Positions 28,573 through 36,261 of a stretch of 64,000 nucleotides of DNA are shown one piece after another. How positions within the stretch are numbered: position 1 is the stretch's first letter; the number at the start of each line of letters is the position of its first letter. The position numbers were made by a program, and so were the translations under genes. Origin of the DNA: Promethearchaeota archaeon (lineage in GTDB: Archaea > Asgardarchaeota > Lokiarchaeia > Sigyniarchaeales > SOKP01); the NCBI GenBank assembly GCA_019058365.1, contig JAHPZE010000001.1:320001-384000 (forward strand), given 5' to 3'. The notes beneath the pieces are model-generated. The model searched no databases, was not told the origin of the DNA, and saw nothing but the letters and a program-made list of their open reading frames with translations.

Positions 28573-31500
28573 TTAAACAATTTCATAATCAATTATGTCT
28601 AAACTTGGTAATAAATCAATCATTTTGCTAATTTGAAATTTACTAAAATGATTTTGATCAATAGCCCCAACTGAACATTCCACAACACAAGCTCCGCACC
28701 CCTTACAAACAGCACTAATTATATGAGCCTTTTTCATAGATATATTATACAAACCCATCTCTTTACAGATTTCAACCAATTCAATTGCATTATAGGGGCA
28801 AATCTCAGTACATTTACCGCATCCTATACATTTTTCTTCATTTACATAAGAAGTAATACATTCAGTTTCTATTTCTCCTTTAACCATTATTATTGCTGCT
28901 CTTCCAGCAGCAGCATAAGCTTGAATAATACTTTCACCAATCCATTTCGGCCAATGAGCGCCTCCACAAAGGAAAATTCCTTCTGTTGCAAAATCAATTG
29001 GTCTAAGTTTTGCATCAGCTTCTAAGAAAAAGCCATCTGTATTTGTTGATACTTTTAACATTTTTGCTAATTGTTTTGTATCATCAGTAGGAACTTTTGG
29101 AGTGGCTAATATTAATAAATCAGTATCATATTTTATATTTGTTTGAGCGCCAATATTATTATATAAGATATGGAACTTATCATTTACATCACTGATTTTG
29201 ATATCATCAATTGAACGATATCTTTCATAAGTTACTTTCTTTCGAAGACCTCGCCATAAATTTTCAGCATTTAAATCGGAGAATTGAAATTCTCTATATA
29301 AAATATGAATTTGTGCTTTAGGGTTGATATTCAATAATTTTTCAATATTCTTTAATGCTACACCACAACAGATATTTGAGCAATAAGGTTTTATATTATC
29401 TCCCCTATTAAATTCGTTTCTTCTTTGATCTACGCACAAAATTATTGTAGCATCTTTAAATACGGGGACATCTTCATCACTCAATGCAGTTAATTCAGTT
29501 TGAGTAAGCAGACGATTAGGATATTTTTCCGATAAATCTGCCCATCTATTTGTTTTTATTTGTTTAGTTCCCGTAGAAACTATTATTGTACCTACATTGA
29601 ATTTTGTATATTTTGAACTATCATTAACATTTTTAACTTTTACTTGATAATTTCCAACATAACCTTGGATATCCTCTATTTCTGAATTTAATAAAATATG
29701 AATATCAGATTTGTTTTTCAAATCAGCAATTTTCTGTAAAATTTCATTTTTCGTAATAGGTATATAATATAAATCAATAAATTCAAGAGCGATACCTCCA
29801 AGAAAAGATTTCTTCTCTACAAGATATATCTCGAATCCTTGATTTGCCAAATTATGTGCAGTAGTTATTCCTGCTATTCCACCGCCAATAATTAAAGATG
29901 ATTTTTCAACTTTTTCTTTAATGGTTTCTAATGGTTTTAAATTAATAACCTTCGCTAAGTGCATTCTTATTAAATCACATGCTTTTTTAGTAGCCTCTTT
30001 AGGTTCATTTTGATGGACCCATGAATCTTGGTTTCTTATGTTTACTAGTTCAAATAAAAATGGATTTAATCCTACTTCTCTTAGAGTATTTTTAAAAAGT
30101 TGTTCATGAGTTCGCGGGGTACAAGAAGCAACTATAAATCTATTAAGATTGTATTTTACAATTAGTTCTTTAATCCGTTCTTGTGAATCAGAACTACAAG
30201 AATACATGTTTTCTTCAACATGAACAACATATGGTAATTTAGAAACATAGTTTACTACTTCAGGAACGTTAACAATACCCCCGATATTAATACCACACCG
30301 ACAAACTAAAATACCTACACGAGGTTTATCCTCTGGTTTTACTGGTATTTCTGGAGGATATTTCACTTTTATAATATTTTGAAATCTAACAGGATACAAT
30401 TTCTCACTAATTTTAGCTGCACATGCAGAACCTTCAGCAACAGCCATTTGAATGTCATTGGGTTTTCTAGAATAGCCAGTTACGAATATATTCTTTTTTT
30501 CAAGTAAAATTATATCAGTCTCACTAATATAACCTAAATCATCACAATCCAAACTGAGTTTTTTTAATAGCTTATAATAAGAAGGAGGTGGAGATAGTGC
30601 ACTAGCCAATATAACCATATCCACTTCAAAAGTTCCAACTTTTCCTTTATCAATATCTTCAAAATATAACTTTAATTTTCCGTTATCTAAATTTTCTTTA
30701 ACATATGAAACATGCCCGTTCACATATTTGACATTATATTCATTCTTACTTTTTTCAATAAATTCGTAAAAGTTCTTACCTTTTGCTCTGATTTCTGTGT
30801 TAAAAATATAGCAGTCGATATTTGGATCATGTTCTTTGACAACTATTGCTTCTTTAGCCGAATTCATGCAACATATGGCAGAACAATATTTTTTACATTC
30901 TGGATGATGAACGTTTCTGGAGCCTACACATTGTATAAAAGCAATTGAATGAGGATGTTTTTTATCATCTAATCTTATAATTTTACCACCTGTAGGCCCA
31001 TTTGCTGATAAAAGACGCTCAAATTGCATATTGGATAAAACATTAGGGGAAGAACCCGCAAAAGAATTATAAATTTCTGGCATTTCTTGATTATATCCTG
31101 TAGCAATAACAATAGCCCCTACTTTTAAATGTATTTCTTCTGGTTTTTGTAAAAAATCTATCGCTTCTGCACTACAAGCTTTAGCACAAAGTCCACATAT
31201 TCTATAATTTAAATATAAACATTTTGATTCATCAATGAGATATATTGGGGGTACTGAAGATGGAAAAGGAATATATATCGCACTTCGAGTTTTTAAATGA
31301 GTATCAAATTCGCTAGGAATTCCTCTAACGGGACAAATTTCGCCACAATCTCCACATCCTTTACAGAGGTCTTCTTTTAAATATCTTGGCTTCTTAATAA
31401 TTGTTATTGTGTAATCACCAGCAGTTCCTCTAATGTTTTTAATGTAAGAATAAGTAAATAACTCAATATTTGGATTTCTATATATATCAACCATTTTCGG

Positions 31501-31686
31501 AGCTAAGATGCATAAGCTACAATCAAGAGTAGGATATATTTTATCTAATTGGGCCATAGTACCTCCTATTGTTGGTTTAATTTCAACTAAATATACTTTA
31601 AAACCTAATTTGGTTAGATCTAAGGATGCTTGTATCCCTGAGATTCCTCCTCCAATAACCAAAACACTACTCCATAAATTTGGCAT
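28573..31686 (-). CDS. hdrA: Large HdrA-like flavoprotein with two FAD modules
   Basis: GGGISG..DCSLC, QCVGSR..CSAICC, internal CRCGINI/CSSD/CTPRTH domain, second GGGIAG module, C-terminal ferredoxin. Confidence 0.88.
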   Translation of the reverse strand: MPNLWSSVLVIGGGISGIQASLDLTKLGFKVYLVEIKPTIGGTMAQLDKIYPTLDCSLCILAPKMVDIYRNPNIELFTYSYIKNIRGTAGDYTITIIKKPRYLKEDLCKGCGDCGEICPVRGIPSEFDTHLKTRSAIYIPFPSSVPPIYLIDESKCLYLNYRICGLCAKACSAEAIDFLQKPEEIHLKVGAIVIATGYNQEMPEIYNSFAGSSPNVLSNMQFERLLSANGPTGGKIIRLDDKKHPHSIAFIQCVGSRNVHHPECKKYCSAICCMNSAKEAIVVKEHDPNIDCYIFNTEIRAKGKNFYEFIEKSKNEYNVKYVNGHVSYVKENLDNGKLKLYFEDIDKGKVGTFEVDMVILASALSPPPSYYKLLKKLSLDCDDLGYISETDIILLEKKNIFVTGYSRKPNDIQMAVAEGSACAAKISEKLYPVRFQNIIKVKYPPEIPVKPEDKPRVGILVCRCGINIGGIVNVPEVVNYVSKLPYVVHVEENMYSCSSDSQERIKELIVKYNLNRFIVASCTPRTHEQLFKNTLREVGLNPFLFELVNIRNQDSWVHQNEPKEATKKACDLIRMHLAKVINLKPLETIKEKVEKSSLIIGGGIAGITTAHNLANQGFEIYLVEKKSFLGGIALEFIDLYYIPITKNEILQKIADLKNKSDIHILLNSEIEDIQGYVGNYQVKVKNVNDSSKYTKFNVGTIIVSTGTKQIKTNRWADLSEKYPNRLLTQTELTALSDEDVPVFKDATIILCVDQRRNEFNRGDNIKPYCSNICCGVALKNIEKLLNINPKAQIHILYREFQFSDLNAENLWRGLRKKVTYERYRSIDDIKISDVNDKFHILYNNIGAQTNIKYDTDLLILATPKVPTDDTKQLAKMLKVSTNTDGFFLEADAKLRPIDFATEGIFLCGGAHWPKWIGESIIQAYAAAGRAAIIMVKGEIETECITSYVNEEKCIGCGKCTEICPYNAIELVEICKEMGLYNISMKKAHIISAVCKGCGACVVECSVGAIDQNHFSKFQISKMIDLLPSLDIIDYEIV

Positions 31687-31740: not shown

Positions 31741-32991
31741 TTAAAAAAGCATCAACAACTTTCCAATGAAACTTGCTAGATCAATTACTTCGATTTTATT
31801 TCTTAATTCATTATATTCTTTATTTAAAGAAAGCTCATTTATATAACAATTAAAATGTGTTAGGCATTTAGGGCACGGAACTATTAAGTAATCTGCATTA
31901 GTAGTAATAGCTTCATTAATACGATTTCTTCTTAAAATATGTGTATATTCATTGCAATTTGAAAATGCTGAAACGCCACAACAGTTAGCATCATCTTCAA
32001 TATTTTCCATTTCAATTAACTCTACTCCTGGAAGTTGTTTAATTAATTCTCTTGGAACATTATATAACTTATCCGCTAACCGCCCCATCCGACAAGAGTC
32101 ATGATATGTCACCTTGATGTCAGAAATAGAAGGGAATCTTACATTTTTGAGAATTTTTTCTTCAAGAAAGAATTCAGAAAAATGCTTCACTTTAAAATCA
32201 AAATTGTCTATTATTTTTGGATAATCAAATTTCCAAGTTCTATATCCTTCAGCACATCCAACAATAACAGTTTTTACACCAGCGTTTCTATAAAGCTGAG
32301 TGTTATATTCGGCAAACGTTTTAAAAGTTTCAATATCTCCTTTACCCCATAGAACGTCATGTCCACAGCATTTTTCATTTAAAACTACTGGCACAATATC
32401 GGCTTCATTAAGTAAACTTATTATTGTAATAGGTATATTAGTATATTTCAAATTTAAATTATAAAATACTTCTTCCATTAAAGGTAAACACCCAATAAAG
32501 TAAGCAATCTCTCCAGATTCCGTTGTTTTCAAACCTTCCTCCTTTAAAAATTCTAATTTATTTGGGTTCATCAGATTATCTGCCATTATTCTCCAGATTA
32601 GTGGAAAAATTTGATTATGTGTTTCACACTGACTAATTCTATTCATTTGGAGTGGATTATTTCTAGAAATCTTTCTCAATTCTAAAATTAGTTTAGGTAT
32701 ATTTATGCCGTCATTTTCTTGACTCATTGGACAATAAATTGTACATTGCCCACAAGTAAGACAATTCCATATGTTATGTTTTTTTACAACTTCTTCCACC
32801 GAAGAAAAAATTAAATCCCCTACTAATTTTCGTGGAAAAAACAAGTTTAAGTGCGAAAGTGGACACACATTTACACATCGATTGCAAGCATAACAAAAAT
32901 TTGACGTTGCAATGACATTTTTGATGCTTTCGCCTAAAATTTGGCAGTCTGAATTATCAGTTTCAATTTCATGATTAAGATAAGATGACAT
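31741..32991 (-). CDS. HdrD/GlpC-like Fe-S oxidoreductase (4Fe-4S dicluster + two CCG domains)
   Basis: CYACNRC..CP, CLTCGQC..CP, EKCCGH, YHDSC, NCCG and PCPKC. Confidence 0.88.
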   Translation of the reverse strand: MSSYLNHEIETDNSDCQILGESIKNVIATSNFCYACNRCVNVCPLSHLNLFFPRKLVGDLIFSSVEEVVKKHNIWNCLTCGQCTIYCPMSQENDGINIPKLILELRKISRNNPLQMNRISQCETHNQIFPLIWRIMADNLMNPNKLEFLKEEGLKTTESGEIAYFIGCLPLMEEVFYNLNLKYTNIPITIISLLNEADIVPVVLNEKCCGHDVLWGKGDIETFKTFAEYNTQLYRNAGVKTVIVGCAEGYRTWKFDYPKIIDNFDFKVKHFSEFFLEEKILKNVRFPSISDIKVTYHDSCRMGRLADKLYNVPRELIKQLPGVELIEMENIEDDANCCGVSAFSNCNEYTHILRRNRINEAITTNADYLIVPCPKCLTHFNCYINELSLNKEYNELRNKIEVIDLASFIGKLLMLF

Positions 32992-33129: not shown

Positions 33130-33952
33130 TTCTCTTTTTTCTACTAAAATGCGTATATCACCTTTTTTTTTAAACAGGATTAATTAAATAATTTTAAAAA
33201 TTTCGTTTCCTCTTAATTTTTATAAATTTTCAAAATGATCTATCTCTAAGATGAAAAAGGTAATCCACATATAAAAATCCTTGCACTGAATTTTTCTCTT
33301 CTAGCATTTCATTGATTGAATATAATATCTCTATGTTAGAGATCTAATCATTTTGATTTCTTTAATAAGAGAATTATTTAATTATAGGAAAAATAATGAT
33401 AAAATTAGATAATTATATTTTTGATTTATAAATATTAATTAACATTATTATAGATAAATATAAAATATTTAGGAAAATTTACAGATTTGTTATATTTTAC
33501 ATTACAGATTTGTCTATATATGCTGATAAAAAATTATAAATTTATCGTAATGAATCGACTTTTTGAGTAAAAAATACCATGTAAGTTGAAATTAACCATT
33601 CTATTCTTGATACTTAAAATCAAAAAACAGTTGAAATGTTGAAATTATTTATTTGTCAAAAAATTTGACAATTTTTATTTTCAATTTAAATTTAGAAAAA
33701 AGGGTTATTTTAGGAAAAAGTCAAAATAGTCAATATTTCTAATGAAAATAAAAATTATAGAAAATAAGTTTTGAAAAATAAATTTGTCAAAATGATAAAA
33801 ATTTTTCTTATCAAACTATTTAAATTCTAATCAGATTATTATATAATTAGAATTAGTCTCATGCCTCAGAAAGATGGAATGGGTTCATCTTAAGAGGTTA
33901 TGATAGTTATATTAAGAACTATTAATAAAAAAGAAAAAAGAAGGGAATTAAA

Positions 33953-34582
33953 ATGGAAGTATTAGAATTAAAACCAATAAACAACAAAAAAATTACTATA
34001 TATTTAATAGATAAAATGAGAATTAACCCTGAACTTAATGATATTGATCTATTAAAGGATTTGATAAATATTAATGATGTTTCTTTTATTACAGTTGAAA
34101 TAAATAATGAAAACTTTAGAGAGTTTAAAAATTCCAATCTTTCAATTATAATAGGTGCTCTAAACTTAGAATATCACTTATTAGATATACCTGAATATGC
34201 GTATGGATATCTTTTTGAAGAGATAAACAAGAAAGAAGAGCAAATTAGAGAGTTATTAACAGAATATAAAAATATGGATGATAAAAACTCTCTTAAAGGG
34301 CTAAATTTAAAATCTTGGATTGATGTTCTTCAAAAGGAAATCAATCATGATAAAAGCATTCTAGAAACAAAAACAAGACCACAATGGATTGTTAAAAAAA
34401 TTTTGGATTTAGTAAGATTACATCAACATGAAGAATTATGTGTTATTCATTTTTTCCATGAAAGAACTTTAGCAGAATTAACTAAACAATTGAGAGAACT
34501 TCATATAGAAGCAATTGTTTATGAATTGAATAATTTTCACAATATCCCATATATAATTATAAAACAAGAGGGGAATAATTAA
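33953..34582 (+). CDS. Hypothetical protein, paralog of the N-terminal domain of the downstream Mtd fusion
   Basis: Shares the MEVLELKP start, L/VDIPE/SE.A.xYL, coiled coil and W..R..W pattern with the next ORF; TAATG coupling. Confidence 0.75.
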   Translation: MEVLELKPINNKKITIYLIDKMRINPELNDIDLLKDLININDVSFITVEINNENFREFKNSNLSIIIGALNLEYHLLDIPEYAYGYLFEEINKKEEQIRELLTEYKNMDDKNSLKGLNLKSWIDVLQKEINHDKSILETKTRPQWIVKKILDLVRLHQHEELCVIHFFHERTLAELTKQLRELHIEAIVYELNNFHNIPYIIIKQEGNN

Positions 34583-36261
34583 TGGAAGTTTTAGAATTAA
34601 AACCTTTAAAAAAACAAAGTTTAAAATTGGTATTAATAGAAAGTGAGTTTCCAATAGATTGGTGGTTTGAACCCACAGCACAGAAAAAGCATGATTTAGT
34701 ATGGAATTTGCACCTAATTTCCAGGGAATATCTTAATCTGATTGAAAATCTTATAGTTAAATATGACCCTGATTTCGCAATCGAAGAAAAAGGAAGTCGG
34801 TGGGAAGATACAATATCTAACGAAGATCCATTAGAAAAGCTATTTAGAGAAAATAACGTCCCATATAAAATGGTAGATATTTCAGAAAACGCAGAAAATT
34901 ATCTTTCCTCGAATTTAGAGGACCAAAGAGCGCTTATAAAACAATTAATAAAATCAATTGAAGATACTAAAAAGAATAATGAGAAAAAAATTTTAAAAGA
35001 TGAATTTGAATTTCAACGGATGATTTTATGGAAGGAATATTTACAGCAAGAATATAATTTTCAAGAAAATGAGATAAGATATAATGTTCGGGAAGCTTGG
35101 ATGATGATGGGAATTCTAAAATTTGCGAAAAAGATGATAGAAAAAAAGCTAATAGCATTCTTTATCTGTGATTCAAGACACTTTGAAGGAATAAGAAAAT
35201 TAACAGAAGAATTAGGCATCGAAACGGAAGAAATTAAAATTAAAAGGTCTGCAAAAATAATAAATAATCCTGGTTCTAATTCAATCAAAAATATAATTGG
35301 AAAAAGTATACTCGAATTATCTCCGATTAAAGTCAAAAAGAAAGAGTCGTTAGAAAAGATATGTTATTTTTTTGATACCGATGATAATGCTTCTCCTTTC
35401 GATATAAATATGGCTTATGACGCAAGTTTTGATGTAGTTATACCTATTAGCAAGATGACTGCTGATCAAGTACCAAAACTCGTACAAGATGCTATTTTTT
35501 CCCGTAAACCAAAAGCACCTACAACTTTCTTTATCGGTGGCTCAAATGTAAAAGAAGGTGAAAAAATTGCTAAAAAAGTTATTGAATCTTTAGTACCCCC
35601 ATTTGAATGCCCCGTGATAATAGATCCTCGTGGTTCACACACCACAGCTTCTTCTGTAGTTGCGAAAACAATGGAATTTGCTAGAGAACATGATTTATAT
35701 GATTTAAAAGGTAAAAAAGTGGTTGTTTTAGGAGCAGGTCCAGTTGGAAGAATTGCAGCTATTATTGCGGCAAAATTAAATTGTAAAACGTATTTAGTAG
35801 AAACTTGGGAAAAATCGAATGAAGAATTTATAAAACGACTAGTTAAAGAATTAAACGAAGAAGTTGGAGAAAATGAAATTATTGGTGTTTTTGCACCTAA
35901 TGATGAAAAGAAATTAGAAATAGTAAAGAGTGCAGATATTATATGGTCCTTAGCAGCAGTGGGAGTTCAAGTATTATCAAAAGAACTCATGAGCAAATTG
36001 ACAAATAAAATTGTATTAGATATAAATTTAGTACCTCCTTATGGAATTGAGGGATTAAAACCTAAAGATAATAATAAAGAACTTTATCCAACTATAAATG
36101 GAACGGGAGCATTAGCCGTTGGAAGGCTTAAGTCAGAAGTTGAGGCCTCAATTTTAAAAGAAGCAGCAATTACTAAGGGGAAAAGAATTTTTGATTATAA
36201 TGAAGCATTTGAAAAGGCTAAAAATATACTATTTGGAAGGGAAATAAAAATTTCTCATTAA
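34582..36261 (+). CDS. Unknown N-terminal domain fused to NAD(P)-dependent methylene-H4MPT dehydrogenase (MtdA/MtdB type)
   Basis: C-half: SPFDINMAYDA, LVQDAIFSR, FIGG, DPRGSHTTA, GAGPVG, DINLVPPYGIEG and GALAVG.LK. Confidence 0.8.
   Translation: MEVLELKPLKKQSLKLVLIESEFPIDWWFEPTAQKKHDLVWNLHLISREYLNLIENLIVKYDPDFAIEEKGSRWEDTISNEDPLEKLFRENNVPYKMVDISENAENYLSSNLEDQRALIKQLIKSIEDTKKNNEKKILKDEFEFQRMILWKEYLQQEYNFQENEIRYNVREAWMMMGILKFAKKMIEKKLIAFFICDSRHFEGIRKLTEELGIETEEIKIKRSAKIINNPGSNSIKNIIGKSILELSPIKVKKKESLEKICYFFDTDDNASPFDINMAYDASFDVVIPISKMTADQVPKLVQDAIFSRKPKAPTTFFIGGSNVKEGEKIAKKVIESLVPPFECPVIIDPRGSHTTASSVVAKTMEFAREHDLYDLKGKKVVVLGAGPVGRIAAIIAAKLNCKTYLVETWEKSNEEFIKRLVKELNEEVGENEIIGVFAPNDEKKLEIVKSADIIWSLAAVGVQVLSKELMSKLTNKIVLDINLVPPYGIEGLKPKDNNKELYPTINGTGALAVGRLKSEVEASILKEAAITKGKRIFDYNEAFEKAKNILFGREIKISH

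Follow-up and report, generated by a model that had tools for sequence, protein, structure and literature searches.

In the 64,000-nucleotide stretch of Promethearchaeota archaeon DNA analyzed here (the window, to whose full length all coordinates refer), two overlapping genes, A and BC, probably encode one multisubunit methylene-tetrahydromethanopterin (methylene-H4MPT) dehydrogenase dependent on nicotinamide adenine dinucleotide or its phosphate (NAD(P)) and equipped with an accessory module of two paralogous domains. We give this reading a probability of about 0.6. Gene A (33953..34582, + strand) codes for a free, degenerate B-domain paralog of 209 residues. Gene BC (34582..36261, + strand), the start of which overlaps the stop of A, codes for a 559-residue fusion of a B domain to an MtdA/MtdB-type dehydrogenase. 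The B domain (residues 1 to 242; 34582..35307, + strand) is predicted to consist of an alpha/beta core and a helical hairpin (residues ~113 to 183) and to be remotely TraB/ChaN-like, and the Mtd domain (residues 256 to 559; 35347..36258, + strand) comprises Mpt_N followed by a Rossmann domain (GAGPVGR). Public databases annotate BC-type proteins as NAD(P)-dependent Mtd or as hypothetical, leaving the other half unexplained, and the literature searched on MtdA/MtdB in Asgard archaea, Lokiarchaeota, and Bathyarchaeota yielded no description of the fusion.

In the proposed mechanism, the Mtd domain would catalyze the NAD(P)-dependent dehydrogenation of methylene-H4MPT. The B domain fused to it would have kept its pocket, which the free copy A would mostly have lost, and the two may pair through their helical hairpins as a heterodimer of an active-like and a dead-like subunit, with LELxP peptide arms helping the three modules to dock. 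B would belong distantly to the TraB/Tiki/ChaN type and bind a ligand or a metal without catalyzing a step of the pathway. The module could then regulate Mtd or tether it to adjacent machinery handling NAD(P)H or ferredoxin (Mvh, HdrA/HdrD, Etf, and Nfn). The heterodimeric sensor or scaffold put forward in the initial annotation is kept here as a hypothesis.

Paralogous domains joined to a dehydrogenase

The initial annotation, made from the sequence of the window, had described two translationally coupled open reading frames (ORFs), each beginning with MEVLELKP. Both were found on the + strand at exactly the coordinates it gave, and both proteins open with this peptide; the TAA stop of A and the ATG of BC share one base (TAATG). 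The same annotation had noted that the first protein resembles the N-terminal half of the second. BLASTP aligned A with this half at 23% identity over 124 residues (E = 4e-6), and hhalign comparison of the trimmed family alignments obtained from 78 related loci, one of 46 A proteins (A3) and the other of 29 B domains (A2), gave a probability of 99.4% and an E value of 2.8e-21 over 198 columns, confirming at the level of sequence profiles that B is a true paralog of A. Structural agreement of the two N-terminal domains had been set beforehand as a test. AlphaFold models built from the family alignments were confident for both B (mean predicted local distance difference test score [pLDDT], 81.7; predicted template modeling score [pTM], 0.78) and A (pLDDT, 86.7; pTM, 0.81), and they display a common succession of elements (b1-a-b2-a-b3-a, then a long helical hairpin, and finally b4-a-b5), B being longer by ~20 residues after strand 1. 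Searches of Pfam and NCBIfam with A and B returned matches at chance level only. Derivation of A and B from the N-terminal domain of Mtd was also considered and is unsupported: hhalign comparison of A with the Mtd profile aligned only the 6-residue peptide LELxPI, and the match between the B and Mtd profiles reflects the overlap of the two alignments and nothing more.

The DNA surrounding the two start codons (33935-33976 and 34562-34605) is also alike, GA(A/G)GGGAAT..AATGGAAGT(A/T)TTAGAATTAAAACC, so that A and BC have in common a Shine-Dalgarno-like sequence (GAGGGG or GAAGGG) and their 8 opening codons. Elsewhere in some relatives there is a third type of A/B family member, more distant and standing alone (~180 to 215 residues, 25 to 28% identical to A) (L016:4141-4746; L023:9468-10016, - strand; L024:3559-4206; L028:3498-4097), and none was found in the genome from which the window originates.

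The Pfam model Mpt_N (PF09176) matched residues 272 to 349 of BC with 85.5 bits for a cutoff of 27 (E = 2.8e-24), and a phmmer search of the PDB aligned residues ~260 to 555 collinearly with the full-length solved structures of MtdA (1LU9, 6TGE, and 6TLK; E ~1e-29), positions 5 to 297 of the query facing positions 3 to 288 of the chain and the Rossmann GxGxxG motif appearing as GAGPVG. Because Mpt_N, the Rossmann domain, and an alignment over the whole length of MtdA were all obtained, the C-terminal half of BC is identified by homology as a complete NAD(P)-dependent methylene-H4MPT dehydrogenase of the MtdA/MtdB type, as the initial annotation had proposed.

Two subtypes of the Rossmann domain were distinguished, G(A/T)GPVGR...VETWxK with a 4-residue insertion (71 sequences, including that of the window) and the MtdA-like GGTGPVGQ...(T/S)SR-RE (28 sequences). 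As a general rule for Rossmann folds, an acidic residue at the end of strand 2 is associated with NAD and Ser-Arg with NADP. Strand 2 of the window Mtd ends in VETWEK, and the Glu at this position therefore suggests a preference for NAD over NADP in this copy. Some genomes hold both subtypes, for example at loci L010 and L060 of a single metagenome-assembled genome (MAG), a combination that would allow NAD- and NADP-linked isoenzymes to act on one substrate pair.

The same genome encodes a canonical F420-dependent Mtd (PF01993; E = 1.7e-104) and the cyclohydrolase Mch (PF02289; E = 8e-106) at G000:C5:114-923 and G000:C31:11196-12164, and Mch was present in 24 of the 24 genomes of the genus that were searched. 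Since both enzymes are encoded, the A-BC module would be an extra NAD(P)-linked branch and not a replacement, and the genome is predicted to have two routes for the methylene/methenyl-H4MPT step. Two candidate explanations, namely, that B replaces a missing Mch and that the archaeon lacks F420-dependent Mtd, were rejected on the basis of these PF02289 and PF01993 matches. The contrast that had been drawn at the outset between F420- and NAD(P)-dependent enzymes thus stands as far as the presence of an NAD(P)-type Mtd is concerned; the F420-only rule that it implied for an archaeon does not, the PF01993 enzyme being present too.

Among the candidate proteins scored, 439 matched BC (the best 120 being mostly of 553 to 569 residues, with a few partial sequences) and 72 matched A. 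The 78 related loci come from species-representative genomes, and gene A is located directly upstream in nearly all of them. In ~22 loci, the fusion is split into B (~242 residues) and Mtd (~330 residues), with short spacers, to form an A-B-C operon. Five loci (L037, L038, L042, L046, and L050) contain A-BC-A'-B'-BC' tandem arrays, so that one operon can encode as many as five A/B domains plus two Mtd domains, the second Mtd domain being of the TSR subtype. In a reversed protein of 496 residues (P0230), Mtd comes first (Mpt_N at positions 16 to 95) and a B-like domain follows (positions 318 to 488); this arrangement may have arisen by a separate fusion event or may reflect read-through across neighboring genes. 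The occurrence of the fusion in both orders, together with its fission, indicates that the modules work together, and we conclude from these sequence comparisons that A, B, and Mtd very probably act in concert. The initial annotation had named a one-off artifact as grounds for rejecting its proposal; the hundreds of relatives, along with the split and reordered forms, show that the fusion is not one.

A search of 1.84 billion cluster representatives with the B profile (HMMER) recovered 97 clusters only, all of the fused, split, or A type. Mpt_N was detected in 91 of 301 sampled Asgard genomes, mostly in open frames of 550 to 610 residues, and a distant fused representative used as the query retrieved homologs at 98% coverage labeled as Bathyarchaeia/Bathyarchaeota, Hadarchaeales, Thorarchaeota, and others. 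The fusion occurs without an adjacent gene A in families f2, f11, f12, f16, and f17. The free gene A was seen in families f1, f5, f6, and f23 and in f3/f4-type relatives. Its occurrence was confined to Lokiarchaeia-type families and one other. The B-Mtd fusion is therefore broad, extending from Asgard archaea to proteins labeled Bathyarchaeia and Hadarchaeales, and the Lokiarchaeia-centered part is limited to the free paralog. Within the genus of the window, B was found in 18 of 24 genomes, which makes it accessory. Several Asgard genomes contain unfused Mtd genes coding for 300 to 320 residues. In a genome of the same family devoid of A and B, three such genes (304, 316, and 317 residues) lie in tandem downstream of a pyruvate:ferredoxin-oxidoreductase-like gene (L104:3999-7493).

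The LELxP peptide occurs three times in the operon, as MEVLELKPIN in A (33953..33982, + strand), as MEVLELKPLK in B (34582..34611, + strand), and in the linker ILELSPIKVKKK (residues 243 to 254; 35308..35343, + strand), in which ILELSPIKVKK (residues 243 to 253) stands just ahead of the Mtd domain, the sequence before Mtd reading SILELSPIKVKKK. Each copy is located 8 to 12 residues ahead of strand 1 of a module. Within the 1.38 million residues of the ORFs of the genome, the pattern [VIL][LIM]E[LIV]xP[ILV] has 10 occurrences, 3 of which are in this operon. The peptide is kept in A, in B, and in the split form of Mtd, where it is found within a 28- to 44-residue N-terminal extension containing SIIELTPIxIKKK; no homology between A and Mtd was detected by hhalign beyond it. 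We infer that the LELxP peptides may be docking arms.

A putative conserved pocket in B and a possible relationship to TraB, Tiki, and ChaN

The residues conserved across B domains are L4-E5-L6, E20, E22, W27, S47, Y50, P63, E68, G71, R73, D99-I100, E102, A104, E162, R170-E171, W173-M174, C196, H200-F201, and G203. The majority are retained by distant cluster representatives and by fused proteins of other Asgard families. When proteins labeled Bathyarchaeia and Hadarchaeales are included in a broad alignment, three residues (G71, R170, and W173) never vary, and L4, E5, P8, R73, A104, and Y107 are almost invariant; E20/E22 and H200 differ in some fused relatives. A secondary-structure map placed the conserved residues at the C-terminal ends of strands 1 to 4 and in the helix preceding strand 4. 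The C-terminal ends of the strands are the usual ligand site of parallel alpha/beta folds, and B is accordingly modeled with a putative conserved polar pocket at the C-terminal edge of a parallel sheet. The absence of some signature residues from the free copy, also reported in the initial annotation, was observed across the family: A retains only the R..W helix motif and, following strand 3, the DIPExAxGYL loop, is devoid of the conserved residues that B displays after strands 1, 2, and 4, and conserves other positions. On account of this loss, B looks intact and A resembles its degenerate partner.

The relationship of B to the TraB superfamily was assessed by structure and by profile. A sequence search of the PDB with the B profile found nothing (best E value, 1.2), and Foldseek found nothing in the PDB at E <= 0.001, the best hits being RecA/KaiC-like noise (E = 0.07 or worse). 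VIA-align scored B against the N-terminal domain of a CbiL-type methylase (Z = 8.4; 120 residues aligned), ChaN (Z = 8.1; root mean square deviation, 4.3; 150 residues aligned; span, 13 to 253), HopBA1 (Z = 7.7), and the C2 domain of the Pasteurella toxin (PMT) (Z = 7.1), and A against CbiL (Z = 8.8) and ChaN (Z = 7.4). Of the structural matches covering the whole B domain, which include HopBA1 and PMT C2, ChaN had the most aligned residues. ChaN, HopBA1, and PMT C2 presumably belong to one superfamily with TraB, Tiki, and EreA. A profile built from 10 genuine TraB proteins of related Asgard genomes gave an hhalign P value of 0.0015 with the narrow B profile and of 7.3e-5 with the broad B-Mtd profile (probability, 62.5%; 150 columns), the latter offering moderate support. 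The register was as expected, with (I/V)D after strand 3, RNxxM aligned to RExW(M/I), and GxGHxxG(I) aligned to C(D/S)xxHxxG(I). In B, the last two motifs are the helix R170-E-A-W-M and, after strand 4, C-D-x-x-H200-F-x-G203-I, in which H200 is not universal, and the TraB Glu after strand 2 has a counterpart in E68/E69, followed by R73. In the ESM Atlas, TraB/GumN was the nearest named cluster (0.83), which is a lead only.

Three weak lines, namely, the profile comparison, the structural matches, and the ESM Atlas cluster, point to this superfamily, and B is rather likely to be a remote TraB/Tiki/ChaN-like domain; the B/A domain would represent a new family, probably on a far branch of that superfamily. 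The guess of a TraB/EreA/ChaN-type fold made in the initial annotation is plausible but weakly supported: the motif register and the hhalign P value favor it, Pfam and Foldseek gave no match, and the ChaN Z scores are at the noise ceiling.

Genuine TraB (PF01963) and B have opposite distributions in 41 related genomes, TraB being found in 0 of 24 genomes of the window's genus versus 7 of 11 genomes of family f2, and B in 18 of 24 versus 0 of 11. Mch is missing from 8 of these 11 f2 genomes, and the opposite distribution may be due to chance or to loss of the pathway.

Alternative roles of the accessory module and genomic context

Several results weigh against the proposed multisubunit dehydrogenase with a TraB-like accessory module. 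Many lineages carry B-Mtd without A, so the fusion can do without A. A Pfam TraB match (PF01963 or clan members) was obtained for none of the 29 B domains at E values up to 10, and the GxxH motif after strand 1 is absent: at the site of G-T-x-H in TraB, B reads L-I-E-S-E-F, or E-K-E in other lineages; because the Pfam hidden Markov model and GxxH tests failed, B was not filed as a member of the TraB family. The fold matches, at Z scores of 7 to 8.8, are at a level that unrelated models also reach, and the tetrapyrrole methylase (CbiL) N-terminal domain scores as high as ChaN. The NAD preference is a prediction from the general Rossmann rule. The redox neighbors differ by lineage (Mvh, Hdr, Etf, or Nfn), a variation that speaks against a single specific docking partner, and gene order shared among related genomes does not count as independent evidence.

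According to one alternative, B is a second enzyme. Its site would resemble the hydrolase-type sites of TraB, EreA, and Tiki, and its substrate would be a C1 unit bound to a pterin, or a related metabolite; BC would then be bifunctional like FolD, and A would be a dead partner. The invariant or nearly invariant polar set at the strand ends (E20, E22, E68, R73, D99, E102, R170, E171, and H200), the remote likeness to a superfamily that contains esterases and a metalloprotease, and the retention across phyla of the fusion to a pathway enzyme are consistent with this possibility. However, the pathway has no obvious missing step, the genome encoding both Mch, as do all 24 genomes of the genus, and F420-dependent Mtd; B has no counterpart of the first TraB-family His motif; neither H200 nor E20/E22 is constant among the fused relatives; and no activity can be named. 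We regard an enzymatic role of B as unlikely.

A second alternative emerges from the genomic context. Divergent from A-BC in the window are an HdrD-like gene (416 residues; 31741-32991, - strand) and a double-flavin adenine dinucleotide (FAD) HdrA-like gene (1037 residues; 28573-31686, - strand), which we consider as context and not as parts of the module. HdrA-like genes flank 51 of the 78 related loci and HdrD genes 17, and genes for the large and small subunits of NiFe hydrogenase are neighbors in 23 and 20 loci, respectively. At locus L096, from another Asgard family, B-Mtd occupies the fourth position of an operon, after MvhD-MvhG-MvhA and on the same strand as these genes, and at locus L095 it follows the NiFe large subunit in the same order. 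A link of the module to hydrogenase and Hdr modules is thus suggested by gene order alone. On these grounds, the TraB-like B, together with the dead paralog A in Lokiarchaeia-type genomes, could be an adaptor that plugs the NAD(P)-dependent Mtd into bifurcating complexes of the Mvh hydrogenase/HdrA type, so that reducing power from H2 would reach methenyl-H4MPT via bound NAD(P). Yet in other lineages the gene lies beside ferredoxin-domain EtfAB (L102), is transcribed divergently from NfnAB-like genes (L098; the ORFs at L107 are similarly arranged and of comparable size), or has none of these neighbors. The Mvh, Hdr, Etf, and Nfn systems all handle H2, ferredoxin, or NAD(P)H, and linkage may mean shared regulation or a shared cofactor pool instead of contact. 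We regard the adaptor function, too, as unlikely.

It is very unlikely that A and B are merely a lineage-specific oligomerization or stability appendage with structural conserved residues, neither a ligand nor a redox partner being involved. In favor of this reading, helical hairpins are typical dimerization elements, MtdA is active without such a domain, and unfused Mtd genes exist in several Asgard genomes. Against it, the clustered charged strand-end residues are kept in distant relatives, including those labeled Bathyarchaeia and Hadarchaeales, which is unusual for a purely structural role, and the retention of a degenerate paralog beside an intact one suggests functional asymmetry.

Other neighbors were considered as parts of the proposed two-gene dehydrogenase and excluded, namely, gdh, a REC-Lrp gene, and a downstream kinase gene, which are conserved in only 13 to 15 of the 78 loci. 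A CDC48-type double AAA ATPase gene (~757 to 776 residues) is located directly downstream of the split A-B-C operon at L029:7787-10117 and at 22 other split-type loci, on the same strand as A-B-C and with a median gap of ~72 nucleotides. The G+C content of the window is ~29%, and its close relatives are Promethearchaeota (Lokiarchaeia-type Asgard) MAGs.

Significance and comparison with known systems

A Wood-Ljungdahl pathway based on methanopterin is generally attributed to Asgard archaea and Bathyarchaeia. The module bears on the redox wiring of this pathway and on what the Mvh/HdrA modules reduce. An NAD(P)-linked enzyme present in three archaeal groups appears to carry an unannotated domain with a putative conserved pocket and, in Lokiarchaeia-type genomes, a degenerate partner subunit, and the module is a concrete object to express, assay, and solve. 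Should the adaptor function be true, it would reveal an undescribed route from H2 to methenyl-H4MPT. It would also supply the "orphan" Mvh-HdrA modules found in Asgard archaea, Bathyarchaeia, and Hadarchaeales, which lack the heterodisulfide of methanogens, with a physiological partner.

In methanogens, MvhAGD-HdrABC supercomplexes recruit C1 enzymes. The likeness, which concerns the genes alone, is that a C1-enzyme gene is linked to genes for Mvh/HdrA and, in some Asgard families, shares an operon with them on one strand. Unlike in methanogens, no HdrB/C partner was present among the window ORFs examined, and the linked C1 enzyme is Mtd instead of formylmethanofuran dehydrogenase.

Similar to members of the TraB/PrgY/GumN-Tiki-ChaN-EreA superfamily (PF01963; ChaN, PDB 2G5G), B is predicted to combine an alpha/beta core whose strands 3 and 4 are separated by a helical insertion, a Glu after strand 2, (I/V)D after strand 3, an R-x-x-(W/Y)-M helix, and xxHxxG(I/V) after strand 4. 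It differs from them by the lack of a Pfam match and of the first GxxH motif, and the statistics are moderate. To our knowledge, no member of the TraB family is fused to a dehydrogenase.

MtdA and MtdB of methylotrophic bacteria resemble the C-terminal half of BC over their whole length, with Mpt_N, the Rossmann domain, and the conserved loops FDTD, SPFD.NM, and DPRGSHTT. In contrast to these enzymes, BC carries ~255 additional N-terminal residues along with the extra subunit gene A, and it is archaeal, in a genome also encoding F420-dependent Mtd. Rossmann strand 2 of BC ends in ETW with a 4-residue insertion, whereas MtdA has an Arg at this site (GR), as do the relatives of the (T/S)SR-RE subtype (SR). 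Finally, FolD is comparable to BC in being a C1-pterin dehydrogenase with a second function on one polypeptide. In FolD, both activities reside in one site of one fold, whereas in BC an unrelated extra domain has been added and Mch is encoded separately.

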